IMG/VR virus record: IMGVR_UViG_3300026165_000001
Location: 1 to 64,000 of that record
Origin: a virus
Lineage: Duplodnaviria > Caudoviricetes
Length of the DNA stretch: 64,000 bases
Reading direction: 5' to 3' (one strand)
The notes beneath the pieces were generated by a model, which saw nothing but the letters and a program-made list of their open reading frames with translations, was not told where the DNA came from and did not search any database. Both the position numbers and the translations under genes were made by a program. This document shows, piece after piece, positions 20,731 to 64,000 of this stretch. Numbering within the stretch: the first letter of the stretch is position 1; every line of letters starts with the position of its first letter.

Positions 20731-20780
20731 CTCCTTTGCTTACTCATATAATATAAGCAAAAAGCCTTGGTTTGTCTACC
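20731..20780 (-). promoter_or_regulatory. Early promoter/RBS cassette, copy 2
   Basis: TAGACA-N17-TATATT, TTGCTTA-N11-TAAGCAA, AGGAG. Confidence 0.8.
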
Positions 20781-21856: not shown

Positions 21857-21906
21857 CTCCTTTGCTTACCCTACCAATATAAGCAATGTGCCTTGGTTTG
21901 TCAACC
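21857..21906 (-). promoter_or_regulatory. Early promoter/RBS cassette, copy 3
   Basis: TTGACA-N17-TATATT, TTGCTTA-N11-TAAGCAA, AGGAG. Confidence 0.85.
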
Positions 21907-32700: not shown

Positions 32701-32871
32701 ATATCCTTCAAACTGACCAAGGTCAGAATTGAAACGTATCATACCATCAACACCAGATGGTCGATTACCTGTTGTGCCTACTGGTAACTTGACAGCACCT
32801 AGAATATCGAATGTGAGTGTCTCGTCTTCAGTTGAGATCAGGTTACCATTATGATTTAAATTAATTGGCAT
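29791..32871 (-). CDS. Long tail fibre protein
   Basis: Repeats VDSVNGQTGVVVL, KLAGIE.GA, SEGTNLYYTDERV; LPVGT..RP...IR.NS...FEGY modules. Confidence 0.85.
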   Translation of the reverse strand: MPINLNHNGNLISTEDETLTFDILGAVKLPVGTTGNRPSGVDGMIRFNSDLGQFEGYNSGWGAIGGGSGGDVDSVNGQTGVVVLDPDDLDDTSTTNKFTTASDISKLAGVEAGATADQTDAEIKTAYENNADTNAFTDAEQTKLAGVEALADVTDTANVTSAGALMDSEVTNLADVKAFDPADYATAAQGDLADTALQDLSGSSTTDLSEGTNLYFTNERVDDRVDSLLVGGTNITLTYDDVSGTLTIDAAGGTAPVDSVNGQTGVVVLDPDDLDDTSTTNKFTTAGDISKLAGIETGATADQTDAEIKTAYENNVNTNAFTDSEQTKLAGIETGADVTDTANVTSAGALMDSEVTNLAAVKAFDPADYATAAQGDLADTALQDLSGNSTTDLSEGTNLYYTDERVDDRVAALLVEGDAINLTYNDVAGTLTVAVPDQAITFAKMQHIATNRILGRDSSGTGDIEALTGPAATDLLRTFNISNSGIVPSSGGGTTNFLRADGSWAEPAYYNTFNTDFDTRLGTKDTDDLSEGTNLYYTDERVDDRVDSLLTAGSNVTLTYNDVAGTLTIDAGGDVDSVNGLTGAVVLDPDDLDDTSTTNKFTTAGDISKLAGIEALADVTDTVNVAAAGAVMDSDFSTNGFMRRTGAGTYTNDANIDLASQVTGNLPVSNLNGGTGASSSTYWRGDGTWASIAGGGDVNKVGTPVDNQVGVWTGDGTIEGTTGLTYNGAALDITGNITVSGTVDGRDLASDGTKLDGIEALADVTDTANVTAAGALMDSEVTNLAAVKAFDPADYVDLTSNQTIGGNKTFADNINLTRSTGTAPHFIQIGEGRTGDGNAFIDLVGGTTYTDYGFRILRASEGNTSLFHRGTDSLIMRTIDAADIQFQTDGANNRLVVKSDGLIGIGTGAPAVSLDISATDAIRLPVGTDAQRPTGADGYIRYNSTNNEFEGYSNSSWAALGGGGGAGLFKGENGEVGSAPGDIFRVNEQVLNTDVTIDANENASAAGPLEIATGTTITVNGNLSIV
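31020..32660 (-). repeat. Intragenic near-identical repeats in the tail fibre (~555-nt unit twice, plus partial copies)
   Basis: TCCATTTACACT occurs at 32086 and 32641 (555 nt apart). LDPDDLDDTSTTNKFTT occurs three times. Confidence 0.85.
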
Positions 32872-32888
32872 TTTTGTGAAGATTCCTA

Positions 32889-32917
32889 TTGACTTCCTGG
32901 TATTTATCGCTTATATT
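32889..32917 (+). promoter_or_regulatory. Sigma70-type promoter overlapping the opposite-strand late promoter of the fibre gene
   Basis: TTGACT-N17-TATATT, with TATTTAT (32901-32907) inside the spacer. Confidence 0.75.
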
Positions 32918-32923
32918 GAATAC

Positions 32924-33116
32924 ATATTAAGCGGCTCCGAGGGATATGGGGCGTTGAATAAAGTAACTAGCGTTAGGCACAGGTGAGACCGGACTATTAC
33001 AGCTGGTCACTGACCCTAGTGCACCTGAGGTCGCGTTGCGGCCATAGGGGATCAGAGTAACTAGTAACCATTTCGATCAAGAGTGAACCGGCCCTAGGGC
33101 CGGTTCTTTTGTTTTT
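32924..33116 (+). ncRNA. Candidate ~190-nt small RNA
   Basis: Bounded by a promoter and a + strand U-tailed terminator. No ORF; several stems with + strand G-U pairs. Confidence 0.6.
33085..33116 (+). terminator. Intrinsic terminator, U-tract on the + strand
   Basis: GAACCGGCCC-TA-GGGCCGGTTC-TTTTGTTTTT. Confidence 0.85.
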
Positions 33117-33132
33117 ACTAAAACAACAGCTA

Positions 33133-34293
33133 TTAGCTGAAGGTTAGGTTTGCAGTTGTAACGTCAATGCGGTTTAGGTAGTCCGCAGCGTTACCAAGGC
33201 TTGACGCCTGGTTGCTGAGTTCTACGTATCCGTAACGTGTCATGAAGCTGACAACTGGCTCGAAGGTGCTTGGGTCAAGCACTGTGCCTGAGCTCATTAG
33301 AGGAATGTATGGGCAGTAGAATGCCGCTGCATCTGTCTCGTTTGAACCTTTATATCCGATAAGGATGTTGTCGTCTGTCGCATACTGGTTAACATAAACG
33401 CGCATTGAGCCGTTTAGTGTACCAACGAACTTGGTGTTTGTTGGCGCCTCGAAAGGACCTTCAGTTGTGCGAGCAAATGCACTTGTGGTAGCTGCCTGGA
33501 GCACTGTGAGGATTGTTGGTGAAACAACCATCCAGTTACCAGCGCCACGACGTGTGCGAGCTGCAATGTCGTTTGCTGCCTTGTTGATGAGCACTGCTAG
33601 TGCAGCATGTTCGTCACCAACAAAGGTTGCGGTTCCGCTTACTGCGTTCTGGTCGTATGTGCTGGTTGCAGCACCTGCGAGTGAACGTAGAGATGCTAGG
33701 ATCTCTTGGTCGATTTCAGCAGTGATCTCCTGCGCGAGCGCAGCCATGATCTCTGCTTCAACGTCTAGGCCATGCATAGCTTGTGCGTCTTGCGCAGCTT
33801 CGAAAGTCCAACGTGCGCTGAGCTTACGAGTCTTTGCTTCGACGGTCTGCTTGAGGACCTGGATGTTTAGCTTACGACCAGCCTGACCTTCAAGCACTGA
33901 AGTTGCTTCAGCGCGGTCAGTTGTAGCGTTACCTGAGTAACCGTTAGCAATCTGGAACGGGCTAAGTGCCTCGTCACCAGCAACTGCTGAGTCGAATGTT
34001 TCTGCATAACGGACACGTAGAGTGTGGATTTGACCAACTGGGCCGGTCATTGGCTGCACACCAACTAGTTCGTTTGCAATAACAGTTGGCATAACACGGC
34101 GGATAACTGGTAGGATCACTTTGTTAAGTGTCGCAATGTTACCTGCTGATGTTGAGCCGACTGTTGCAGATTCTGACAACTGCTTCTTGGTGTTTTCAAG
34201 AACAGTTTCCATAACTGACTTTTTGTTACCGGTCAAGCCGTCAACGAGTGCGTCCTTGGTTGCTGACCAGTTTTCGAATAGAACGTCTGCCAT
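33133..34293 (-). CDS. gp23: Major capsid protein (gp23-like)
   Basis: RRVMPTVIANELVGVQPMTGPVGQI...VEAKTRKL...FYCPYIPL...FMTRYG. Confidence 0.97.
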   Translation of the reverse strand: MADVLFENWSATKDALVDGLTGNKKSVMETVLENTKKQLSESATVGSTSAGNIATLNKVILPVIRRVMPTVIANELVGVQPMTGPVGQIHTLRVRYAETFDSAVAGDEALSPFQIANGYSGNATTDRAEATSVLEGQAGRKLNIQVLKQTVEAKTRKLSARWTFEAAQDAQAMHGLDVEAEIMAALAQEITAEIDQEILASLRSLAGAATSTYDQNAVSGTATFVGDEHAALAVLINKAANDIAARTRRGAGNWMVVSPTILTVLQAATTSAFARTTEGPFEAPTNTKFVGTLNGSMRVYVNQYATDDNILIGYKGSNETDAAAFYCPYIPLMSSGTVLDPSTFEPVVSFMTRYGYVELSNQASSLGNAADYLNRIDVTTANLTFS

Positions 34294-47699: not shown

Positions 47700-48593
47700 C
47701 TAAATAGTATTGTATCCGGCATTTCTTAATTCTTCTTGTTTTTTTTCTTCATCCTCATCCCGAGAACGTTGCTGGGCAGCTTCATCGTCTAGCTGACGGT
47801 TGAAGCTGGGCATGTATCCGCCATCCTGTAACATGTCGTCACGGATGTTTTGGTTACGTTTTTCGAGATTGAGAACACGAGTAAAGCTATTAGTGATGGT
47901 TGCAGTATAGTAAGCGAAAGGATTAGCACTTCTTGCTTCGTTAAACTTGAGTCCAACTTCACTCAACTGTAATAATGCTGCACTTTGCATCTCATCATTA
48001 TATGTATAGCCCCGCCAGTTACCGCGCATTGCATAACGCTCTACCAACTTCATCATCATTTTGGCCAGCTCGCCTGTCAAACCACCATGTGTTTGACTAA
48101 AATGACCGTTATCAAATCCACCTTGCCAGTGGCTACGCAATACTTCCTTTAGTTCACCATCTACAAACGCATAGTGTTTAAATGGCGGAAAGTTGATGCG
48201 AGTGTGTAGGTCTGCTACTGTTTTTGGGTTTTTCTTTCGATTAGGTGTTTCTGGGATATGATCATATGTCATTACACGAAACACAACGTCTTCATCTGAG
48301 ATAGAGCTGGGATCAACACGAAAATCAGCTTGTTTGGGTTTTGTTGATCTCACACCACCTGCATCATGCCACGCATTGATACCTTTTTCATATCCCGCGC
48401 TTGATAGTTGCGCAGCGTGATTTTCTTTTGCCTCATGAATTTTTTCGTCGTCGATCTCTTCTAGAGAATCAACAATGTTGTCAAAATGCTTGTATCGATC
48501 ATCCAAGGCATAGCAATAACTTAGCTTGCTCTTGTGAATTTCCTTTAGCATATCTTTGTTGTTGAGGTATTTTGTAGACTTCTTCCTGACCAT
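47700..48593 (-). CDS. gp55: Late-transcription sigma factor (gp55-like)
   Basis: YLNNKDML...YAMRGNWRGYTYNDEM...KFNEARSANPFAYYT...EKRNQ. Confidence 0.8.
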   Translation of the reverse strand: MVRKKSTKYLNNKDMLKEIHKSKLSYCYALDDRYKHFDNIVDSLEEIDDEKIHEAKENHAAQLSSAGYEKGINAWHDAGGVRSTKPKQADFRVDPSSISDEDVVFRVMTYDHIPETPNRKKNPKTVADLHTRINFPPFKHYAFVDGELKEVLRSHWQGGFDNGHFSQTHGGLTGELAKMMMKLVERYAMRGNWRGYTYNDEMQSAALLQLSEVGLKFNEARSANPFAYYTATITNSFTRVLNLEKRNQNIRDDMLQDGGYMPSFNRQLDDEAAQQRSRDEDEEKKQEELRNAGYNTI

Positions 48594-48614: not shown

Positions 48615-48643
48615 AGTATAATACGTTAACCCATTGAAGTCAA
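48615..48643 (-). promoter_or_regulatory. Sigma70-type promoter for the late sigma gene
   Basis: TTGACT-N17-TATACT. Confidence 0.75.
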
Positions 48644-48729
48644 GCGGTTTTCAGGCTGATAAATATTAGTTAGAAGGCGTTGAATTGTTGGATTGAGGGC
48701 ATGTCACGCTGGTATTTATCGGAATCAAC

Positions 48730-49380
48730 ATGGTTACAAGACAAGATCTCAGAGCATCATTAACGGTTAAAACCCGTAGCAGAAGTTTCGGCGTGAACAA
48801 TTTTTTCACCGGGACAATACCTGCTTACAACGTTCCCTTCCAAGGACCAGGACAGGCATTAATAAGAACACGTGGTATCGTGTTTCCGTTTACTCCCAAC
48901 ATCAGCGTTGCACAACAGGTTGAATATGGTCAGTATGATGTAGTGCACACAAATTACCAACAGAATGCATATGCAAGGACGCGCAACCCCCAAATACAAA
49001 TTACTGGGGTATTTGTTAGTCAAACGCCAGAAGAAGCAGCGTATACAGTGGGCGTGATGCATTTCCTCAGAGTGTGCAGCAAGATGAATTTTGGTGCCAA
49101 CGACGATGATCGCGGCACACCACCGCCAGTGCTATTGTTTAGTGCATATGGGGCATATAATTTTCAAAATGTTCCTGTATTGATTGGTAGCTTTAACTAT
49201 GTATACCAAGATGATGTTGATTATGTTGAGGTAGAAACAGGGGGCGAAACGGTGCAGATACCATCAATGATGATCATTGCTATCGACTTGCTACCACAAT
49301 ACAGCCCAGAAAAACAAACAAACCAATTCACACTTGATAGTCTTGCAAGAGGAAGTGGCTATAGGAATGGATTTATCTAA
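48730..49380 (+). CDS. Baseplate/tail-tube initiator-like protein
   Basis: GIVFPFTPNI...HTNY...HFLRVCSKMNFG...GTPPPVLLFSAYG; first gene of the baseplate operon. Confidence 0.6.
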   Translation: MVTRQDLRASLTVKTRSRSFGVNNFFTGTIPAYNVPFQGPGQALIRTRGIVFPFTPNISVAQQVEYGQYDVVHTNYQQNAYARTRNPQIQITGVFVSQTPEEAAYTVGVMHFLRVCSKMNFGANDDDRGTPPPVLLFSAYGAYNFQNVPVLIGSFNYVYQDDVDYVEVETGGETVQIPSMMIIAIDLLPQYSPEKQTNQFTLDSLARGSGYRNGFI

Positions 49381-54598: not shown

Positions 54599-57500
54599 AT
54601 GGCACAGAGTATCCGACAGAGAAATTTGTTTGCAGCAGAAGACTATCGTCTTGTATACGACAGTTTCAAACAAGCAAACTTTCAAGCATACGACTACGAC
54701 ACAATACGTGGCGCACTAGTTGATTATATTCAACAGCAATATCCAGAAAATTTCAATGACTGGATTCAATCCAGTGAATTTGTTGCGCTGATTGAAACAC
54801 TTGCGTTCCTTGCGCACAGTCTAGCCTTTCGTATTGACCAAGCAGGACGTGAAAACTTCCTTAGCACTGCGGAACGTCGTGCCAGCGTTTTGCGTATTGC
54901 TGATTTTCTAGGATACACACCAACACGTCATCAACCAGCTCGTGGTCATCTCAAAGTTACAGGCATCCGCACTACACAGGACGTTTTTGATATCAATGGT
55001 GATAGCCTTAAGAACCAGACAATTGATTTTGAAGACTCATATCAAAACTTTTTATTGGTGATGAATGAAGTATTGAGTGCTACAAATAAGTTTGGTAGAC
55101 CAAACAATAGTATAAGAATTGGCAACGTCAAGAACGACATTTACACCACCAATATTTCAAACAACCGTAATATTGTATTTGATATTCAAGGTGAGGTAAA
55201 TGGGGTGCGTCGTGGGTTTGAAGTGCACGGCACCAATATCAATCGTTCTACCAATACATTGGTTGAATCAGAACCTGATCCGACTGGCAGCTTTAACATC
55301 GTTTACAAAAATGACGGCCAGGGACTCGGTAGTAATGATACTGGATTTTTTGTGGGCTTCAAGCAAGGCACATTGCAATTTAATGATATCACAGCAGACG
55401 AAGCTGTTAGTAATCTCTTGATTGATCTTGGAGCAACCAATGTTAATAACAGTGATATTTGGGTTCAAAGTATTAATGATTCAGGTGAAATAGTAAACAG
55501 TTGGACTAAGGTGGATAGCGGATTTGGTGCTAACACTGTTTTTAACAACATACGACAAGATAACCGAAAACTCTACTCAGTAAAAACAGTAGATGAAGAC
55601 AACGTCAACATTATATTTGGTGATGGTGTCTTTAGCGAAATACCTCGTGGTATTATTCGAATTTGGTATCGCACTGGTATCAATCAGACATACACACTAG
55701 ATCCAGATGATATTGGAACAGTGACTTTTGGTTTCAACTATGATTCACCAGACAATAACACGTATAAGGTAACATTTACATGTGAATTGCAAGATCCAGT
55801 AACAAACGCATCTTCAGCAGAAACCATTACCAGCATTAAAAACAATGCCGGACGTGTTTTTGCTGCACAAGATAGAATGATCACTGCCAGTGATTACAGC
55901 GTTTATCCACTTACTGTTAGCGAGAATATTCGCAAAATCAAAGCAATTAATAGAACATATACCGGACATAGCAGATTTATTCGCGCACAAGATCCCACTG
56001 CAACCTACCAAAGCGTGGATCTCGTGTTTGATGATGGATATATCTATAGTGAAGGCTTGACATATCGAACAAATCTAGCGTTGCCTAGTAACCTCAGTGT
56101 TGATCAAATTTATTATCGCTTTATTGATGAAGCTATCTCAAATCCTGAAGTGATCAATTTGTTCTACAGCAAATATGAAGATGTCAGTGTAGATTTCAAC
56201 AACGTGAGCACAAGCTATGAGTGGCAACAAATTACAAGTGGTTATAGAGGCTCAACTGGTTATTTAACACGGGGAAGTGTTATTCAAAAGATTGGGTCAA
56301 ATGCTACAAACGATCTAAACGATGCTCGCCCAGGAAGCATTGTAGAATTTGTGGAATCACCATACAATAGCGGCACGCTGGGCGAGCCAGGTGATTCTCT
56401 CACAATTATAAATGCTGGTTCAGGATATACGAGTGCACCTACTGTTACCATTCGCGGAACAGGAACAGGCGCTGAAGCCACAGCCACGATAAATGGCGGT
56501 CAGATTTCTGGCGTGACGTTAACGGCAGGCGGAGCAGGATATCAAAACCCTGTTGTCGTTGAAATCACCGGCGGGGGTGGTAGCGGCGCGGCGGCCGTAG
56601 CTCGTGCCCAGTCAGCGGCTAAGACATGGGCTCGTGTAGTTGATGTCGTATCAGATGGACAGGGTATCAATGACAGTAATGGCAATCCTACTGGCCTCAC
56701 ATCACGTGGACAGGGGGCAGTGGTTCTCAATAAGGTCATTCCCAACACTGCTCGTGTAAGTCGTGTGTTTCCAGCATACAAAACACAATTTAGTGACGAA
56801 GAAAGAAACAATATTCTTGATGAGCTAGCAAACCTAAACTCATTTGGTTTGCGTTATGATGAAACTGCTAGCGAATGGAAAATCATACGCTCAGGTGATC
56901 TTCCGACAACTGATGAAAACAATCCAGATAATTTCAGCTTTGAAAATGCTGGTGATTTGAGTAATTCAAACAATGACCATAGTTGGATCATGCGAGTTAA
57001 TTATAGTGCAAGTCGTTGGGAATTTATTTCACGGCGACAGCGATTTGTTTATGGATCCGACGAAAAAATTCGCTTCTTTAATCAAAACGGCAAGAGACGA
57101 TTCAATGTAGAAACAAACAAACCAGAACGCGATGCAATTGTTGTGTCACGAATTAACACAAAGCCAAACGGTAGCCTATTTCCTCTAGAAGAAGATTTGA
57201 CTTTCTTTGCTTACCGTTATTTCACAGAACCAGACGGATACACAGACAATCGAAAAGTAATCGTTACACTGGCTGATGTTGACAATGACAATTATCCAGA
57301 TAATCCTCTTGCATTTAAAACACTATCTGGCAATAACAATATTGCACTGGGAACCGTGACGGAAGACGGAAATGAATACACTGTGAGAACAGAAACTGGA
57401 ACAGAAGTGCCAGGACGCAGCAATTTGACTGCGACGTGGCGCCGCATTAGCACTAGTCGTTATCGCATTGATCCAAGTCTTTCAAATATTATTGATGTGT

Positions 57501-58024
57501 TCGTTCTTAACCAGAATTATGACACTAAATATCGAGAGTGGATTGCAGATAGCAGAAAAGAATCAGAACGCCCAGAAACCCCAACCGAAGTGGAATTGGA
57601 AAAACAATTTGCGGCACTAGATTCCAAGAAAGCAATTAGTGATTCAATTGTTTATCGAGCAGCAGAATACAAGGTGTTGTTCGGTGAATTGGCTGATTTG
57701 GAATTGCAAGGTAAGTTTAAGATCGTGAAAGTTTCTGGAACAACATTGACAGACAATGAAATCAAGTCAAGAGTATTAACTGCAATTCAAAATTTCTTTG
57801 ATATCAATAATTGGGATTTTGGTGAGACGTTCTACTTTACAGAGTTGAGCGCCTATATTCACCAACAACTTCCTGGTGTCATTAGCAGTGTGGTTTTGGT
57901 TCCATTGGCAACCAACAGTCAATTTGGTGACTTATTCCAGATCGGACCAGACAGCAATGAATTGTTTATTCCAGACGTAACACTAACTGATATCGAAATT
58001 GTCGATTCATTGAATTCAATATAA
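54599..58024 (+). CDS. gp6: Baseplate wedge subunit (gp6-like)
   Basis: YDYDTIR...PENFNDWIQSSE...RENFLSTAERRASV, FGDGVF, QDRMITASDY, WDFGETFY. Confidence 0.85.
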   Translation: MAQSIRQRNLFAAEDYRLVYDSFKQANFQAYDYDTIRGALVDYIQQQYPENFNDWIQSSEFVALIETLAFLAHSLAFRIDQAGRENFLSTAERRASVLRIADFLGYTPTRHQPARGHLKVTGIRTTQDVFDINGDSLKNQTIDFEDSYQNFLLVMNEVLSATNKFGRPNNSIRIGNVKNDIYTTNISNNRNIVFDIQGEVNGVRRGFEVHGTNINRSTNTLVESEPDPTGSFNIVYKNDGQGLGSNDTGFFVGFKQGTLQFNDITADEAVSNLLIDLGATNVNNSDIWVQSINDSGEIVNSWTKVDSGFGANTVFNNIRQDNRKLYSVKTVDEDNVNIIFGDGVFSEIPRGIIRIWYRTGINQTYTLDPDDIGTVTFGFNYDSPDNNTYKVTFTCELQDPVTNASSAETITSIKNNAGRVFAAQDRMITASDYSVYPLTVSENIRKIKAINRTYTGHSRFIRAQDPTATYQSVDLVFDDGYIYSEGLTYRTNLALPSNLSVDQIYYRFIDEAISNPEVINLFYSKYEDVSVDFNNVSTSYEWQQITSGYRGSTGYLTRGSVIQKIGSNATNDLNDARPGSIVEFVESPYNSGTLGEPGDSLTIINAGSGYTSAPTVTIRGTGTGAEATATINGGQISGVTLTAGGAGYQNPVVVEITGGGGSGAAAVARAQSAAKTWARVVDVVSDGQGINDSNGNPTGLTSRGQGAVVLNKVIPNTARVSRVFPAYKTQFSDEERNNILDELANLNSFGLRYDETASEWKIIRSGDLPTTDENNPDNFSFENAGDLSNSNNDHSWIMRVNYSASRWEFISRRQRFVYGSDEKIRFFNQNGKRRFNVETNKPERDAIVVSRINTKPNGSLFPLEEDLTFFAYRYFTEPDGYTDNRKVIVTLADVDNDNYPDNPLAFKTLSGNNNIALGTVTEDGNEYTVRTETGTEVPGRSNLTATWRRISTSRYRIDPSLSNIIDVFVLNQNYDTKYREWIADSRKESERPETPTEVELEKQFAALDSKKAISDSIVYRAAEYKVLFGELADLELQGKFKIVKVSGTTLTDNEIKSRVLTAIQNFFDINNWDFGETFYFTELSAYIHQQLPGVISSVVLVPLATNSQFGDLFQIGPDSNELFIPDVTLTDIEIVDSLNSI

Positions 58025-58033
58025 GGTAAATTG

Positions 58034-61000
58034 ATGGCAAAAGATTATAGCGCCAACCCAAAAGACGTAAAAAACTTCACACAAGGGGCTGAAGTTGGAC
58101 TGGATCAAAGCTTTCAGGACTATAGTGAGTTTCTGCCCTTTATCAATAGAACAGAATCACTTGAGCGTTTCTTTGGCAGCACTGTCAATCAACTTCTAAG
58201 TTCTGGATCAACTCAGAGTATTGACGCATACTGGGGTCGGCTTGCAGGAAGAAACTATAACCCAAATAACGAACTCTTTCAGTTTGAGCCTGATGCCACA
58301 CGTCTTAACTATCAATTCCAGCCTGGCACAGTGAGCCGTGTTGAAGGCCAAACTGAACAAACTGTTAGTTACATCAATTGGCTCAAGCGTCTCGAAAGTC
58401 TTGGTGCTGATATTAATAACCATGATCGACTTTTCAGTGAGCTGGGATATGTGCTAGACTTGCCAATTAATGCAGATATGTTGATGAATTATCGCAATTA
58501 TTATTGGTTAGAAGGACAAATACCAACAATTGTAATTGAACCCACAGTTGACGATCCAATTGTCATTGATGATATCGTTAAGTTTTCATTCTATACAACT
58601 CCAGAATTGTCAAACTACAAGACTGTTGAGTTTGTGACTGGTTTGCGTGTTAAATTCACAGGCGATTATGTTTCAAGTACGAGCGGAGATTATTTTGCTG
58701 ATTATACATATTCAGTTGAAAATGTGGGCGGTGAAGGAGGAATTAAACTTGTGCCAGTTATTGATGATACTGGTGACAATCTATTCCCGAGCACCACTCC
58801 TTATGAGATAGAAATCCGCGAAGGCTGGGATATATTTGATTATGATACAACACCATTCGATGGCATCGCGCCATTCGATCCATACGACGTCACAACTAAT
58901 CGTGATCGTGAAGATCTAAATCTTAACACTACATATATTGTAATGGAACGTTGGGCAGCCGATAAAAATCCTTGGGCCAGAACAAACAAGTGGTATAGCC
59001 TACATGCAATTGACATCATGGCAGAGTATAATGGCGTTAATGTTGAGGCATATAAAAACGCCTTTACCCGCGCCAATAGACCAATTATTGAATTCCGTGC
59101 AAACATGGAGCTCACAAACTTTTGTGGTAATTTTGCTGGCACAGTTGATTACGCAGTAAGCATCGACCAAGCAAGCCAAATTGGAGACTCAGGCGGATCT
59201 TTCCAAGTCGATAGTGAAAACTCATTGGAAGATGGCGATGTTATTTTTGTTGGTAAACCAGAAACAAATGGTATCCAGCTTGTTGAATTTAATCAAGACT
59301 TCAACAGTGACTTCGACAGCGGCCCAGCACTGAGCGGCGCGTTTGGTCCTCCATATAGCAGCGCATTTGACGTTGGTGTGGCAATTACATTGAATCAAAA
59401 CGCATACCAAGTCAGTATTGTTAGTAATACAATTACATTGACGCCACTTTCACCATATAATGACGGCGATTATGTGATTGTCACTAAGGGAGAACAAAAA
59501 GGATTTGTCTATTGCTTTACAGAGGCTGATGGTTGGCAAGTCGCACAAAATAAAGAATCACGAGGTGATTTCCCGCTATTCAAGCTATATGATGACGAAC
59601 TAATTGATCTTGAAAGTTACGAAAATACAGACTTTGTTGGTGAAAAGATCTTTGGATATCGAGAAAATCCAACAGGCGGATTTGATCGTGAACTAGGATT
59701 TAGTCCATCATTTACGCAGCAAGGATCATTTAACGATTATGAATTTGAATGGACACTTAGCACAAACCGTTATAGTCGTGATGTAACAGTGGACAATTCA
59801 ACTGAAATTCGTGGATACTATTTCTGGCGAGATCGAGTTGAAAACAAATATTATAATGGATGGACACAAGTCCGTGGTGGACAGCGTGTTCCTATTATCC
59901 AAACACAAGTCGCCGACGGAACAAACCAGCCTACATTTGAACTAGGAACAACAGCAGTCAGTCATCCCACTGAATACACTGTGGTTTTCCAGGACGATGA
60001 ATATCGTTGGCACGAACACAGTTATATTGATCGTCATCCTATCGGTGAACCAAATCCAACAATGGTTTGGCGCTATGATACTGATTACAATATCAATACG
60101 TTGATTGAAAACTCTAGCGATTCCTTGGAGTTTGTGCGAGCAATTTCTTATGCTTCAGATACTGTTTCCAGTATTACTTTAGCTAGTGCAACACCGGTTG
60201 AGATCACAGTTGCAGATACATCACAGCTAAAGACTGGTGACCGTGCCACATTTACAAATGTAACAGGAACAACCGAACTCAATGGGAATACTTATGAAAT
60301 CACAGTTGTTAACTCAACTACATTTACACTAGATGGAACAGATGGTGATGATTTCAGTGCTTATGTAAGTGATGGCGACATTACATATGGTGATGGAGAT
60401 ATCACTGTTACTGTAACAGATGATCTAAACACAACTGTAAATGTATCCAGCAGCTATGTATATGGAAAGATATTGTATCGCAATACTAATGATTCAACCA
60501 TTCAGGGAGAGATTTTCCTTTCTGATGAAAATCAAAATAGATACTCTGTAATTCGCAATGGTCGTTATCTCGTAGAAGATGTTGATTACGCATTTAGTGG
60601 CACAACAATTACCGTGACTGCGGAATGCAGTGAGGACGATGTTCTTGAACTAATTTATATTGCTGATGCAGATCTAGAAAATGTTGTTTATGATGTGGCT
60701 CCTATTCACTTCTACAATAACGATAACAAACCATTCACGTTTGTGGGTTATGACGATCTAACAAATCACTTTGCACGACAAATGTCTGCAATGCCAGGAT
60801 TTGATGGTGATGTATTTGGCATTAACAACTACCATAACACGGTGCGACAGCATTCATATGACGGCTTGATTAGACAGCAAATCTTCTCAAGCAAGCGTGT
60901 GCAATATCTAATAGATCAAGAGTCTATTAATCCAGTTCGTGCACTCAAAAATATTTCACGTGATTATGCTGATTTCAAGAAATACTTTATTAATAAAGTT

Positions 61001-64000
61001 CGACAATTGTGGAATACAAATGAATGGTCAACTGTTAGAGAATTGGTTGACCGAGCAATTTCTGACATCAATATTGGAAAAAGCGACGAATTCAAATATG
61101 CACATAGTGACATGGCATATGCTAAACAATTCAGAAGCATTGAACACACAATAACAAATAGCGATACTGAATATGCTATGCCCAGTGTGGTTAACGTTTA
61201 TAATGATCGACAAAACCATATACAAGTCTGGCTAAAGGAATATGATTCAGTGACAAGCCAGTTCATTGAACGTCCGTTGGTCAAGGATATTGATTATACA
61301 ATTAACGGTCCAAATATTGTTTTGACCAGCCCGGCTGAATTTAGTGGTAATGTTGTAAACAGTTCAGATAATGTTGTAAACAGTTCAGACAATGTCATTG
61401 TTGGTGAACCAACCGGTGGACCAGCAACTCTTACCATACGTTGGTATAGTGTAAATCAACTGAGTCATATTCCGCCAAGTGCAGTCAAACTAGGATTCTT
61501 CCGTCCAACACAAATTGAATTTACAGATGGTGTATTGATTGGACATGACGGAAGTCGTTATACTGCAACAAACACAGATATCACCAACACAAAAAGTGTT
61601 GACTTTGATGTTGTCGCGGCTGCACTATACGATTATGAGTTGCGAGTATTCAATAACTTGGTTGATGGACACTTCCTAAGCGATACACAATACAATTATG
61701 AAATGGGGGAATTTTATCCAAACCCTGATGGCGAGTTTGCTTATGATGTATCAGATATCAATGATCGACTCGATGACTGGTATAACCGTTGGGCTATCCG
61801 CAACAGCGTAACTGAAATTGACACGGTTGCTTATGATGCTGGTGATGAATTTACTTGGAATTACAGCACGGTTGGTCCTGAACTGGGTAGCTGGCGCAGC
61901 ATATACACTTATTACTTTGGAACAGATCGCCCACACACACATCCTTGGGAGATGCTCGGACACCGCATCAAGCCTACATGGTGGGATGCAACTTATAGTT
62001 GGACGGCGGGACCTTTGCGTGATGCATTGATTTCAGCCTTGAAGTTCGGCAAAACAGGAGACACAAGCGGTCCTGATAAGATTGATTTGCGTTATGCTCG
62101 TAGCAGCTATGATTGGGACGATGAAACCCTGGTCAGTGATGATGGTTCAGCAACCTTAAATGGTCCTGACACCGCAGGCGTTGTTAGCACACCAGCGAGT
62201 ATTGATGCTGCACGTGATTTTGTTTTTGGTGATTGGAGTGAAACAGAGGATAGATGGCGTAAGAGTAGTGAATATCTTTTTGCGCTTGCTGAAGTCTATT
62301 TGCAACTCAAGCCATACAGGACACACGAGCTATTTTGGTTCCTACATCGTTACAATATTAATCGCAACGTAACACAAGAACAGTGGGTCAATATTGATTA
62401 TTGTATTCGTGCATATAATCAAGAATTGCACAACCAAAAAGTCAAAGACGGTGTTATCGCTAGTATACGTGTCGTTAATGGCGGAACAGGATATACATTC
62501 CTTGATCTTGAATTTGAACAAGGACCCATTTGTTATCGTATTGCTGAAGCACAAGCCTATACATCTGCAGGACGTGTGGTGGCTGTAGCAGTTACAGATC
62601 CAGGACGAGGCTTTGCTAGTGATCCAGTGGTCAATTTGAATGGTCCTCCAAGCGGTTCCGGTGTTGAGTTAGAGTATGTTATTATTTCTGATCTATACTT
62701 CACACACCTAGGATTCAACACTCTTCCAGCAGAAGAATATGTAGTGGTAAATCCAGACTCAACAGACCTAGCTGAACGACTTGATGGCCTTGATATCAAT
62801 TACATGCTACATGTTGGAGGATTTACTGACAAGCGCATACTTGCTATTGAGTTGGATGGTGATTATGATAGTGGTGTTGTTCGTATTCCAGAAACAAGCT
62901 ACGACATTCTAATTGATCGCAATGCTCCAATCAAAACAGCATTTTATTCAGGTGTTCGAATCGATAAAGAGGACGTTGGTTACCGCGTGAGTGGTTACGA
63001 TCTTGATAGTGAATTCTTCAATTATCTTCTGCCATCAACAGCAGGCAAACAGATAAGTGTTGATATTGGAAATACTGAGGTTGTGAAACATCTCAACTGG
63101 AGAAACGAGGTAGCACGAATTCCTTACAATACAGTGCTCCTCAAGCGCCAAGAACTGTATCAGTTCTTGCTGGGACTTGGCAAATACTATGAAAGCATTG
63201 GTTTTGATGCATATACACAATGGGAAGTGGAAGCCAGAGCAGCGATTGAATGGGCATTGGGAACCGACACTGATCCTTTCTATGTGAATGGTATTAATGA
63301 TACAATCAGTTATCATCAAGGAACACGTGGCGTTGTGCAAACAATCGACGTCAATTACGATGGTGTGCCCAACTTGCTTGATCAAAATTTTAAGAATATT
63401 CGACGCAATGAAACACTTGTTTTGAGAGATAATGATAAAACTGAAATCTCAATCAAGAACGGCGAAGATAGAATTTATGGTCTAGGTGTTCGTGTTATTG
63501 AATTTGAACACATCATTACCATTGATAATGTTACATCATTCAATGACGAATTTTATATTCCTGAGTTGGGTGTTGGTCAAAACCGTGTCCGCCTAGTAGG
63601 CGAAAGAACAAGAAATTGGAACGGTCGTGTTGAGGCGGTTGGATACCTTGTGCAAGATACAGGACTTGTTCTCAATATAGAAAGCAGCGTTCGTGAGCTT
63701 GAACAGGACTGGATGACATCTGACAGTAAAGCACTTGAGCGTTTGACACGTCAAACTCGTGGATACAATGTTGGATATTCAAAACCAACATACATGACCA
63801 ATACTTTTGTTAGCGACCGTTCAGGTTATGCGTTTGAAAAGGGTTTGAGAAAATACCGCGGCACTGCTAGCGCAATCGAAGCCATGACCAGGAACAAGAA
63901 CATTTTTGGTCAAGAATTTGAGCATGAACTATATGAAAACTGGATGGTAAGACTGGGAGATTTTGGTGACGTTAGTGAACGCAACCCGATTGAATTCCAA
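58034..64000 (+). CDS. Giant baseplate/virion structural protein (gp7-like position), runs off the right edge
   Basis: ATG 58034 MAKDYSANPKDV...FLPFINRTESLERFFGSTVNQL. The same frame is open at spot checks (59282, 60161) and at the edge (FGDVSERNPIEFQ). Absent from the track, consistent with having no stop in the window. Confidence 0.85.
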   Translation, partial: MAKDYSANPKDVKNFTQGAEVGLDQSFQDYSEFLPFINRTESLERFFGSTVNQLLSSGSTQSIDAYWGRLAGRNYNPNNELFQFEPDATRLNYQFQPGTVSRVEGQTEQTVSYINWLKRLESLGADINNHDRLFSELGYVLDLPINADMLMNYRNYYWLEGQIPTIVIEPTVDDPIVIDDIVKFSFYTTPELSNYKTVEFVTGLRVKFTGDYVSSTSGDYFADYTYSVENVGGEGGIKLVPVIDDTGDNLFPSTTPYEIEIREGWDIFDYDTTPFDGIAPFDPYDVTTNRDREDLNLNTTYIVMERWAADKNPWARTNKWYSLHAIDIMAEYNGVNVEAYKNAFTRANRPIIEFRANMELTNFCGNFAGTVDYAVSIDQASQIGDSGGSFQVDSENSLEDGDVIFVGKPETNGIQLVEFNQDFNSDFDSGPALSGAFGPPYSSAFDVGVAITLNQNAYQVSIVSNTITLTPLSPYNDGDYVIVTKGEQKGFVYCFTEADGWQVAQNKESRGDFPLFKLYDDELIDLESYENTDFVGEKIFGYRENPTGGFDRELGFSPSFTQQGSFNDYEFEWTLSTNRYSRDVTVDNSTEIRGYYFWRDRVENKYYNGWTQVRGGQRVPIIQTQVADGTNQPTFELGTTAVSHPTEYTVVFQDDEYRWHEHSYIDRHPIGEPNPTMVWRYDTDYNINTLIENSSDSLEFVRAISYASDTVSSITLASATPVEITVADTSQLKTGDRATFTNVTGTTELNGNTYEITVVNSTTFTLDGTDGDDFSAYVSDGDITYGDGDITVTVTDDLNTTVNVSSSYVYGKILYRNTNDSTIQGEIFLSDENQNRYSVIRNGRYLVEDVDYAFSGTTITVTAECSEDDVLELIYIADADLENVVYDVAPIHFYNNDNKPFTFVGYDDLTNHFARQMSAMPGFDGDVFGINNYHNTVRQHSYDGLIRQQIFSSKRVQYLIDQESINPVRALKNISRDYADFKKYFINKVRQLWNTNEWSTVRELVDRAISDINIGKSDEFKYAHSDMAYAKQFRSIEHTITNSDTEYAMPSVVNVYNDRQNHIQVWLKEYDSVTSQFIERPLVKDIDYTINGPNIVLTSPAEFSGNVVNSSDNVVNSSDNVIVGEPTGGPATLTIRWYSVNQLSHIPPSAVKLGFFRPTQIEFTDGVLIGHDGSRYTATNTDITNTKSVDFDVVAAALYDYELRVFNNLVDGHFLSDTQYNYEMGEFYPNPDGEFAYDVSDINDRLDDWYNRWAIRNSVTEIDTVAYDAGDEFTWNYSTVGPELGSWRSIYTYYFGTDRPHTHPWEMLGHRIKPTWWDATYSWTAGPLRDALISALKFGKTGDTSGPDKIDLRYARSSYDWDDETLVSDDGSATLNGPDTAGVVSTPASIDAARDFVFGDWSETEDRWRKSSEYLFALAEVYLQLKPYRTHELFWFLHRYNINRNVTQEQWVNIDYCIRAYNQELHNQKVKDGVIASIRVVNGGTGYTFLDLEFEQGPICYRIAEAQAYTSAGRVVAVAVTDPGRGFASDPVVNLNGPPSGSGVELEYVIISDLYFTHLGFNTLPAEEYVVVNPDSTDLAERLDGLDINYMLHVGGFTDKRILAIELDGDYDSGVVRIPETSYDILIDRNAPIKTAFYSGVRIDKEDVGYRVSGYDLDSEFFNYLLPSTAGKQISVDIGNTEVVKHLNWRNEVARIPYNTVLLKRQELYQFLLGLGKYYESIGFDAYTQWEVEARAAIEWALGTDTDPFYVNGINDTISYHQGTRGVVQTIDVNYDGVPNLLDQNFKNIRRNETLVLRDNDKTEISIKNGEDRIYGLGVRVIEFEHIITIDNVTSFNDEFYIPELGVGQNRVRLVGERTRNWNGRVEAVGYLVQDTGLVLNIESSVRELEQDWMTSDSKALERLTRQTRGYNVGYSKPTYMTNTFVSDRSGYAFEKGLRKYRGTASAIEAMTRNKNIFGQEFEHELYENWMVRLGDFGDVSERNPIEFQ
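61349..61396 (+). repeat. 21-bp in-frame tandem repeat (NVVNSSD x2 plus partial)
   Basis: AATGTTGTAAACAGTTCAGA(T/C) twice, then AATGTC. Confidence 0.85.

Follow-up and report, generated by a model that had tools for sequence, protein, structure and literature searches.

Our analyses have identified a candidate non-coding promoter-terminator cassette in an uncultured jumbo phage, where it lies in the gap that separates the genes for the major capsid protein and a tail fibre. Judging from its sequence and from what related phages retain of it, this cassette is probably a real transcription unit. The explanation of its function that we favour, tentatively and with slightly less than even confidence, is that it acts in cis, either as an antisense RNA or through promoter occupancy. 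By analogy, it may be likened to a moron-like unit that carries no open reading frame (ORF). A conserved and structured small RNA (sRNA) acting in trans, as a decoy or a ribozyme, is not supported by our results.

Elements of the predicted cassette

The window, by which we mean the whole stretch of 64,000 nucleotides that was analysed, corresponds to positions 1 to 64,000 of an IMG/VR virus record of 87 kb (completeness ~24% by CheckV) and represents part of the genome of an uncultured jumbo phage whose capsid is of the T4 type. The best named relatives of its capsid protein (66-71% identity) are those of Vibrio phage 2.275.O, Sinorhizobium phage Phosso, PA5oct, CBB, and GAP32, all of which are jumbo phages, and prohead protease and scaffold-like genes are found upstream of the capsid gene. 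The cassette sits in a 261-nt gap (32872-33132) between the capsid and tail-fibre genes (Table 1), both of which are on the - strand. This gap is partly covered by contigs of three other sequencing runs with 0-2 differences (viz. X8 32885-33370, X11 32757-33017, and X12 33036-33194) and hence is not an assembly artefact; contigs of diverged relatives align inside the capsid gene only, and the gap is partly uncovered in some runs (DNA runs X8, X11, X12, and X13). No tRNA or tmRNA was found. The T4 origins oriF and oriG have a replication primer RNA, and an origin primer of this type was considered for the cassette and rejected: there is no extremum of cumulative GC skew near 33 kb, the minimum lying at ~48 kb, where gene orientation flips. 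Elsewhere in the window, one open frame of 1990 aa or more (58031-64000, +) directly follows a 1141-aa ORF (54599-58024) and runs past the window end.

Table 1. Coordinates of the cassette, its neighbouring genes, and RNA motifs at the corresponding position of related loci (window coordinates unless a locus is named).
Feature	Position	Strand	Remarks
Tail-fibre gene, 1026 aa	29791-32871	-	PHROG 24456, E 3.1e-96; divergent from cassette
Sigma-70-type promoter (predicted)	32889-32917	+	-35 TTGACT 32889-32894, 17-nt spacer, -10 TATATT 32912-32917
GATAAATA, late-promoter-like motif for tail-fibre gene	32901-32908	-	Within spacer of + strand promoter
Imperfect palindrome GCTTATAT / ATAT(T)AAGC	32909-32932		Spans -10 hexamer and transcript start
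Predicted non-coding RNA, ~190 nt	32924-33115	+	Ends inferred from sequence
5' hairpin with SD-like loop and 3-codon ORF	32934-32957	+	Stem 32934-39/32947-52; ORF 32946-32957
9-nt direct repeat AGTAACTAG, first copy	32962-32970	+	
G+C-rich 85-nt stretch between repeats	32971-33055	+	Includes putative three-way junction and hairpin 33029-43
9-nt direct repeat AGTAACTAG, second copy	33056-33064	+	
Intrinsic terminator (predicted)	33085-33116	+	Palindromic 9-bp stem 33085-33106 (7 G-C), U tract 33107-33116
Small hairpin over capsid stop codons, T-rich tail	33127-33139	-	Possible first terminator of capsid gene
Major capsid gene, Gp23 family	33133-34293	-	Pfam PF07068, E 2.1e-101; PHROG 138; convergent with cassette
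Rfam motifs in the slot of related loci	L025:2935-3335; L023:4236-4784; L099:3792-3996; L113:3783-4149; L024:4311-4517	capsid sense	

The promoter TTGACT-17-TATATT, which had been pointed out in an earlier reading made from the sequence only, is present as described there. It is the top promoter-like match within 31.5-34.5 kb and the sole match to the exact pattern in 64 kb, where 0.04 would be expected. A scan of the 87-kb record returned 49 sites that match at least 10 of the 12 consensus positions, 13 of which lie mostly outside ORFs (as sorted with a crude ORF set). Four of these 13 intergenic promoters have GCTTATATT in common, viz. that of the cassette at 32889 and those at 1220, 20750, and 21876, each of the latter three standing directly before an SD-ATG gene start. 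On these sequence grounds, the predicted cassette promoter is one of a class of sigma-70-type promoters that this phage has in its intergenic regions. The relative PA5oct is described as dependent on the host RNA polymerase, with promoters of the form TTGAC/TATAATA (PMC7318152).

The four sites form a promoter sub-family (TTGACA-17-TATATT with GCTTATATT; 1220-1248, 20750-20778, and 21876-21904, all -, and 32889-32932, +), in which an inverted repeat GCTTA ... TAAGC is formed by the -10 region and the first transcribed bases. This symmetry is seen at the promoters 1220, 20750, and 21876 as well as in the cassette, and in these three protein-gene copies the repeat leads straight into AAGGAG; two related loci (L087 and L278) retain it, by eye, with altered letters. 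The inverted repeat may serve as an operator or, in transcripts that read through from upstream, as a leader hairpin. The start of the RNA was placed at the A of a conserved CATA, 7 nt past the -10 hexamer, and its end within the U tract. Early expression of the unit would be expected from its promoter type.

The spacer of this promoter also contains, on the opposite strand, the 8-mer GATAAATA, a putative late-promoter motif similar to the T4 late promoter TATAAATA. The 8-mer occurs 9 times in the window (2.47 expected), in most cases at a distance of 30-65 nt before a gene start, and the copy at 32908-32901 is read as the predicted late promoter of the tail-fibre gene. The gap would then hold two overlapping promoters placed back to back, a late one directed leftward to the tail fibre and a sigma-70-type one directed rightward. 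A gene for a late-transcription sigma factor is present at 47700-48593 (PHROG 12791, E 3e-87). It has a sigma-70-type promoter (48615-48643, -) similar to that of the cassette and is divergent from a virion-protein gene (48730-49380) with GATAAATA upstream at 48658; this back-to-back early/late arrangement at ~48 kb, where the cumulative GC skew minimum is also found, mirrors the one at 32.9 kb.

At the other end of the unit, the tail after the terminator hairpin reads TTTTGTTTTT on the + strand vs. merely ACTCTTGATC on the - strand. The proposal that the U tract fits the + strand unit better than the capsid gene is thus borne out for the tail itself; the hairpin is not exclusive to this unit, having T-runs on both sides in relatives. 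The identical hairpin is located 3' of the capsid gene in L088, L170, L286, and L302, and the terminator is probably shared back to back by the cassette and the capsid gene.

No ORF of at least 20 aa with a start codon lies in the segment from the predicted start to the terminator, and the longest stop-to-stop frames in the unit (26-28 aa) are without ATG, GTG, or TTG context. An ATG said to close after three codons does so (ATG GGG CGT TGA, 32946-32957), preceded by an SD-like GAGGGA at 32939-32944. L176 and L273 have, by eye, a hairpin like this 5' one of the window, with GGAG in its loop and with GTG ORFs of 5 and 2 codons, and this likeness of hairpin plus mini-ORF amounts to just two independent cases. 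A mini-ORF ("minigene") function for the SD-like site and ORF of 2-5 codons in the window and L176/L273 was rejected, the combination being absent, by eye, from the other six units.

All five of the stems previously named for the body are complementary as given, and most of them recur in the minimum free energy (MFE) fold. The claim that G-U pairs favour the + strand also holds, since these stems contain five G-T pairs (A-C on the opposite strand); the folding energy is -46.8 kcal/mol for the + strand vs. -33.7 kcal/mol for the - strand. An inner fold beyond chance, by contrast, is not found: the whole 192-nt RNA has a z of -2.24 against shuffles because of its terminator hairpin, and the 161-nt body without the terminator has a z of -0.85 (+ strand; +0.96 for the - strand). 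The body is G+C-rich relative to the phage genome. A short repeat GTAACTAG, reported at 32963 and 33057, is present and is part of the 9-mer AGTAACTAG, which is found in only two places in 64 kb (at least two matches were obtained in 2 of 100 shuffles); beside this single 9-nt pair, the sole other repeat pair is one of 14 nt with 79% identity. The 85-nt stretch between the two copies may be an insertion.

The cassette locus in related phages

Related loci were collected by scanning sequence collections with exact patterns and by searching IMG/VR and metagenome contigs with the capsid protein, the best 80 of about 600 candidates being kept each time. A pattern of the -35 hexamer and spacer retrieved 23 stretches, of which six are at the cassette locus (L170, L174, and L182, which are the same, L176, L180, and L086), 14 belong to Category B (see below), and three are chance matches. 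A pattern for the DNA 3' of the capsid gene retrieved at least 118 stretches, and 79 distinct flanks were taken from these and other loci; a filter for the promoter plus ATCAAG was passed by seven of them (L170, L176, L180, L086, L273, L278, and L286), and a hairpin scan contributed L302. Nine distinct units are thus available, viz. those of the window, L087, L176, L273, L286, L170, L180, L278, and L302. L087 came from the capsid search, L273, L278, and L286 from the capsid-3' pattern, and L302 from the hairpin, none of them being selected by promoter; L170, L176, and L180 entered the set through a pattern requiring the -35 hexamer and spacer, and are biased in this regard.

The eight relatives, whose capsids are 91.2-97.4% identical to that of the window, have a common layout of TTGAC-17-TAnAnT, CATA, body, ATCAAGA, and hairpin, convergent with the capsid gene. 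In the alignment, TTGAC, TAnAnT, their 17-nt spacing, and an ATA where the transcript is predicted to begin are invariant in 9/9 units. One example is L087 (capsid 94.5%), in which a gap of the same size contains TTGACT-17-TACATT at the same place and in the same orientation, a bidirectional terminator, and a diverged interior. The ATCAAGA-like stretch before the G+C-rich hairpin is present in most units, with variation in several (GTCAAGA in L087, ATCACGA in L180, unaligned in L273), and is conserved because it is the complement of the U tract that a capsid-sense transcript needs after the shared hairpin. In L273 and L278, a Nudix-like gene replaces the tail-fibre gene on the left and the spacer has diverged and is without GATAAATA, with hexamers and 17-nt spacing intact; the promoter is therefore kept for itself and not as the shadow of a late promoter. 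This gene (L278:1427-1858, +; L273:1317-1853, +; capsids 91.7 and 97.4%, respectively) is convergent with the capsid gene, its Nudix box having been seen by eye in the L278 translation only. The description of the locus as a stand-alone unit convergent with the capsid gene has accordingly stood up well, with a promoter of the phage's own class and with promoter, start-site context, and terminator kept in eight further lineages.

The bodies enclosed by this frame range from 47 nt (L302) to 161 nt (window) and are unalignable across lineages; those of L180 (60 nt) and L273 (120 nt) are unrelated despite capsids 97% identical to that of the window. On the RNA strand, none of the nine bodies is clearly above shuffles (best z: L302 -2.4, L087 -2.0, and L180 -1.9), and the minimal members L278 and L302 have A+T-rich bodies of 47-57 nt without structure. 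No shared fold was found for the window and L087 (folding term -2.2 kcal/mol). The structural conservation among relatives, whose lack the sequence-only reading had named as a refutation, is thus not seen: the bodies cannot be aligned, have no common fold, and in the window do not exceed shuffles. Within two homologous pairs, a stem is retained: the bodies of L176 and L273 keep a stem of 7-8 bp via one compensatory change, and those of L170 and L286 keep a hairpin via G-U changes only. These two pairs hint that some bodies may be under selection at the RNA level.

Relative to L170 (L170:9905-9974, -), L286 (L286:3327-3473, -) has an insert of ~72 nt with two hairpins, which consists of 63 nt plus one repeat copy and is flanked by the 9-nt direct repeat AAGCTTATT, the rest of its body being L170-like. 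This insert parallels the 85 nt between the AGTAACTAG copies of the window; either a small insertion has left this trace, or the repeats provide a substrate for deletion.

A recognisable promoter is absent in L088/L303/L304 (capsid 90.7%, same hairpin) and in L277 (88.6%), and in relatives with capsid identities of 82-86% the gap is ~95-100 nt; its hairpin is bidirectional, with T-runs and an A-run, and the next gene is preceded by a late-promoter-like motif resembling TAAATATGTA. The promoter-less loci and the short gaps at or below 86% identity indicate that the unit is dispensable.

Known RNA families and comparable phage systems

No homologue of the body was detected by blastn in 50,697 phage records, and blastn against related loci gave matches at the L087 promoter region and the L088 hairpin and nowhere else. 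The whole records behind 50 + 13 related loci (other than L087 and L088) held nothing beyond one 15-nt chance match, exact 18-21-mers from three parts of the body were found in IMG/VR only in L086, a 99.9% identical copy, and two body probes had no match in 185,579 species genomes. The earlier remark that the family is not recognised agrees with our covariance-model scans: Rfam 15 gave 0 matches at gathering score in the 64-kb window, and scans of a 601-nt and a 173-nt stretch at E <=10 gave sub-threshold matches only. The best of these, the DnaX frameshift element (RF00382; 27.1 vs. 35 bits), was rejected, as its match rests on the terminator hairpin and the aligned stretch has neither an A-run for the slippery A AAA AAG site nor an ORF running through it. 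The manA RNA (RF01745, gathering score 55.2 bits) has no match on either strand at E <=10. ToxI-like antitoxin RNAs consist of tandem direct repeats of ~30-40 nt beside a toxin gene, and a type III antitoxin RNA was likewise rejected, there being no such tandem repeats and the neighbours being capsid and tail-fibre genes. No conserved single-stranded seed is present in the nine units, and the 87-kb record contains no complement of at least 12 nt to the RNA elsewhere, vs. 1.9 expected by chance. Earlier guesses of a protein decoy, an antitoxin mimic, or a ribozyme find no support, the body being no better than shuffles and sharing no fold with relatives.

Category B, which was retrieved with the same promoter spacer (ATTTATCGCTTATATT), is a highly conserved RNA-like element of ~240 nt (e.g., L169:4650-4915, +; also in L167, L171-L173, L175, L177-L179, L181, L184-L186, and L188). 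It is found in small, unrelated phage contigs with terminase, RusA, and replication-initiator genes; RNAalifold gives 62 pairs, 6 of them with compensatory changes, and there is no Rfam match. Kinship with the window RNA was rejected: a 10-mer is shared, but a profile HMM matches the promoter only, and a covariance model (R1) built from 11 members has no match at 32.9-33.1 kb at E <=10, its weak match at 62991-63109 lying inside the giant ORF. The likeness is treated as chance.

Some more distant relatives carry known RNA elements at the corresponding position. In a scan of 26 loci, partly chosen by eye, of about 300, manA reached the gathering score (55.4-63.2 bits) in L024, L025, L099, L113, and L299 and stayed under this threshold in L023 and L119, the slot of L025 and L023 has a glutamine riboswitch aptamer, and freshwater-2 was found in that of L023, L299, and L029 and at sub-threshold score in L113. 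These relatives are marine, their capsids are 75-80% identical, and the motifs are in capsid sense. The structured manA RNA, of ~200 nt, occupies the slot of the window RNA just 3' of the capsid terminator; it differs in being capsid-sense, the window RNA having the opposite orientation. In the slot, manA sometimes has the glutamine aptamer before it and freshwater-2 after it. By eye, L099 has TTGACC-17-TATATT before manA and a hairpin and T-run after it, and on this evidence the L099 manA would be a stand-alone RNA gene and not a leader. This suggests that manA, which is cis-regulatory in Rfam, can stand as its own promoter-to-terminator unit. A further locus (L014) that appeared manA-like by eye was discarded, with no match at gathering score or at E 0.001. 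In this jumbo-phage group, the capsid 3' flank thus seems to harbour RNA elements repeatedly.

Morons of tailed phages are independent promoter-cargo-terminator units inserted between late genes, and, according to Hendrix and colleagues, they reportedly occupy positions between genes that are adjacent in related phages. The cassette is alike in that a sigma-70-type promoter and a factor-independent terminator surround an extra segment between structural genes, and in that the genes bordering this slot are adjacent in relatives (82-86% capsid identity, gaps of ~95-100 nt). It differs in that it has no protein-coding cargo, is convergent with the capsid gene, shares its terminator, and has cargo that turns over. 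The early "anti-late" transcripts of T4 are said to be long read-through RNAs made by host-polymerase transcription against late genes, whereas the cassette RNA would be confined to the intergenic gap by a strong terminator.

Antisense and non-coding phage RNAs with mapped start sites are described for PAK_P3, LUZ19, phiKZ, and others, and a role in restraining transcription or late expression is proposed for such antisense RNAs (PMC10914365). Like the predicted cassette RNA, those of PAK_P3, LUZ19, and phiKZ are described as short, with defined promoters, and directed against structural genes (PMC10914365); they were found by RNA sequencing, whereas the cassette is known from sequence alone and ends before the capsid coding sequence. 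PA5oct, which shares the capsid group of the window (68% identity) and is likewise a jumbo phage that uses the host RNA polymerase, is reported to have transcribed ORF-less regions (PMC7318152). Its ncRNA001-004, at about 8.3, 22.0, 103.1, and 246.1 kb, are described there as having no known promoters (PMC7318152). These RNAs lie away from the capsid gene (85.9-87.0 kb), and the cassette has no sequence likeness to phage records. No convincing convergent unit is found 3' of the capsid gene in PA5oct or Vibrio phage 2.275.O. PA5oct has a 14-bp bidirectional terminator there (L084:5225-5313; MK797984 87074-87162), and a CTGACA-17-TATAAT (11/12; 2 such matches vs. 1.7 expected) faces this terminator on the opposite strand and overlaps the start of a Hef-like endonuclease gene.

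Possible modes of action

In the explanation that we favour, the host sigma-70-type promoter would fire toward the 3' end of the capsid gene, and an RNA of ~190 nt would stop at the terminator shared back to back with that gene. Selection would hold the promoter, start site, and terminator region, and the body would be swapped, inserted into, and deleted among close relatives. The RNA would be perfectly complementary both to the 3' end of the capsid mRNA and to late transcripts that pass the capsid terminator in the direction of the tail fibre, and a polymerase on the cassette promoter would cover the late-promoter motif of the tail-fibre gene; through both effects, late structural expression may be checked early in infection, or capsid and tail-fibre transcripts kept separate. 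The geometry allows antisense pairing, the convergent units sharing a hairpin whose - strand U tract is weak. A frame that is selected while its body turns over implies that the unit acts through being transcribed in place, and a freely variable body fits a cis-antisense or occupancy role, for which no particular sequence is needed. Because L273 and L278 have no late promoter to occlude, occupancy cannot be the general role.

It is doubtful that the cassette is instead an expression slot whose 161-nt body is a lineage-specific payload, a structured sRNA binding a host or phage factor in trans. The order of promoter, terminator hairpin, and U tail is the classic layout of a bacterial sRNA gene, the G-U pairs, the far lower + strand folding energy, and a G+C content as high as in many RNA genes all point in this direction, and the manA, glutamine-aptamer, and freshwater-2 elements in the same slot of more distant relatives keep such a payload alive as an idea; the stems retained in two homologous pairs of bodies also speak for it. 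The fold of the body is not significant against shuffles, however, and is not shared with L087, its nearest comparable counterpart; seed, complementary target, and Rfam match are all lacking in the searches above, and the short bodies of L278 and L302 are A+T-rich and unstructured. A related proposal, that the capsid 3' flank is an exchange slot for promoter-driven RNA genes, in which the clade of the window has a fixed frame with changing payloads, and that the window body, including its 85-nt insert, is a new, fast-evolving, trans-acting RNA, is distinctly unlikely; such a body might be a decoy for a host factor or defence, diversified by an arms race. Neutral decay of a moron, in which a former small early gene has shrunk to three codons and its RNA has no role of its own, is difficult to reconcile with hexamers, spacing, and start context that are invariant in 9/9 units while the interior has turned over, and no relative with an intact small ORF in the slot was found among the 79 flanks. 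Some features would nevertheless be explained by it, viz. the SD-like site and its ATG, the GGAG and short GTG ORFs of L176 and L273, the position of the next gene within ~100 nt of the capsid gene in relatives at or below 86% identity, and the 9-nt direct repeats around 85 nt, as left by an insertion or used in a deletion; we consider this origin unlikely.

The remaining proposals are much less probable. It is highly improbable that the unit contains an attenuator in which 33009-33022 pairs with the 3' half of the terminator (33091-33104), in competition with its hairpin, and thereby regulates antisense read-through into the capsid gene. The two 14-nt arms are 79% complementary, and CCCTAG/CTAGGG words occur at 33014, 33045, and 33091, but the terminator is a perfect palindrome, so that likeness to one of its arms equals complementarity to the other; moreover, this is a single case, short members lack such a segment, and there is no match to a known aptamer. 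It is also very unlikely that the locus is a product of chance, with a hairpin that serves the capsid gene only, hexamers that arose as a by-product of the tail-fibre late-promoter region, and spacer for the remainder. The GATAAATA motif for the opposite strand could account for conservation of this stretch, and A+T-rich gaps readily yield promoter-like matches, as the convergent 11/12 match of PA5oct illustrates; yet L273 and L278 keep the hexamers and their 17-nt spacing with neither the late motif nor the tail-fibre gene, and the exact pattern would be expected 0.04 times in 64 kb.

The significance of the cassette depends on its transcription. If it is not transcribed, the locus is an ordinary intergenic region only. 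If it is, the cassette would be a clean non-coding "moron", in which a conserved expression frame with exchangeable content stands beside the most highly expressed late gene, and it could be used to test how late structural operons are insulated or timed in jumbo phages relying on the host polymerase. Alongside the manA, glutamine-aptamer, and freshwater-2 elements of its relatives, it would mark the capsid 3' flank as a place to seek phage RNA genes.
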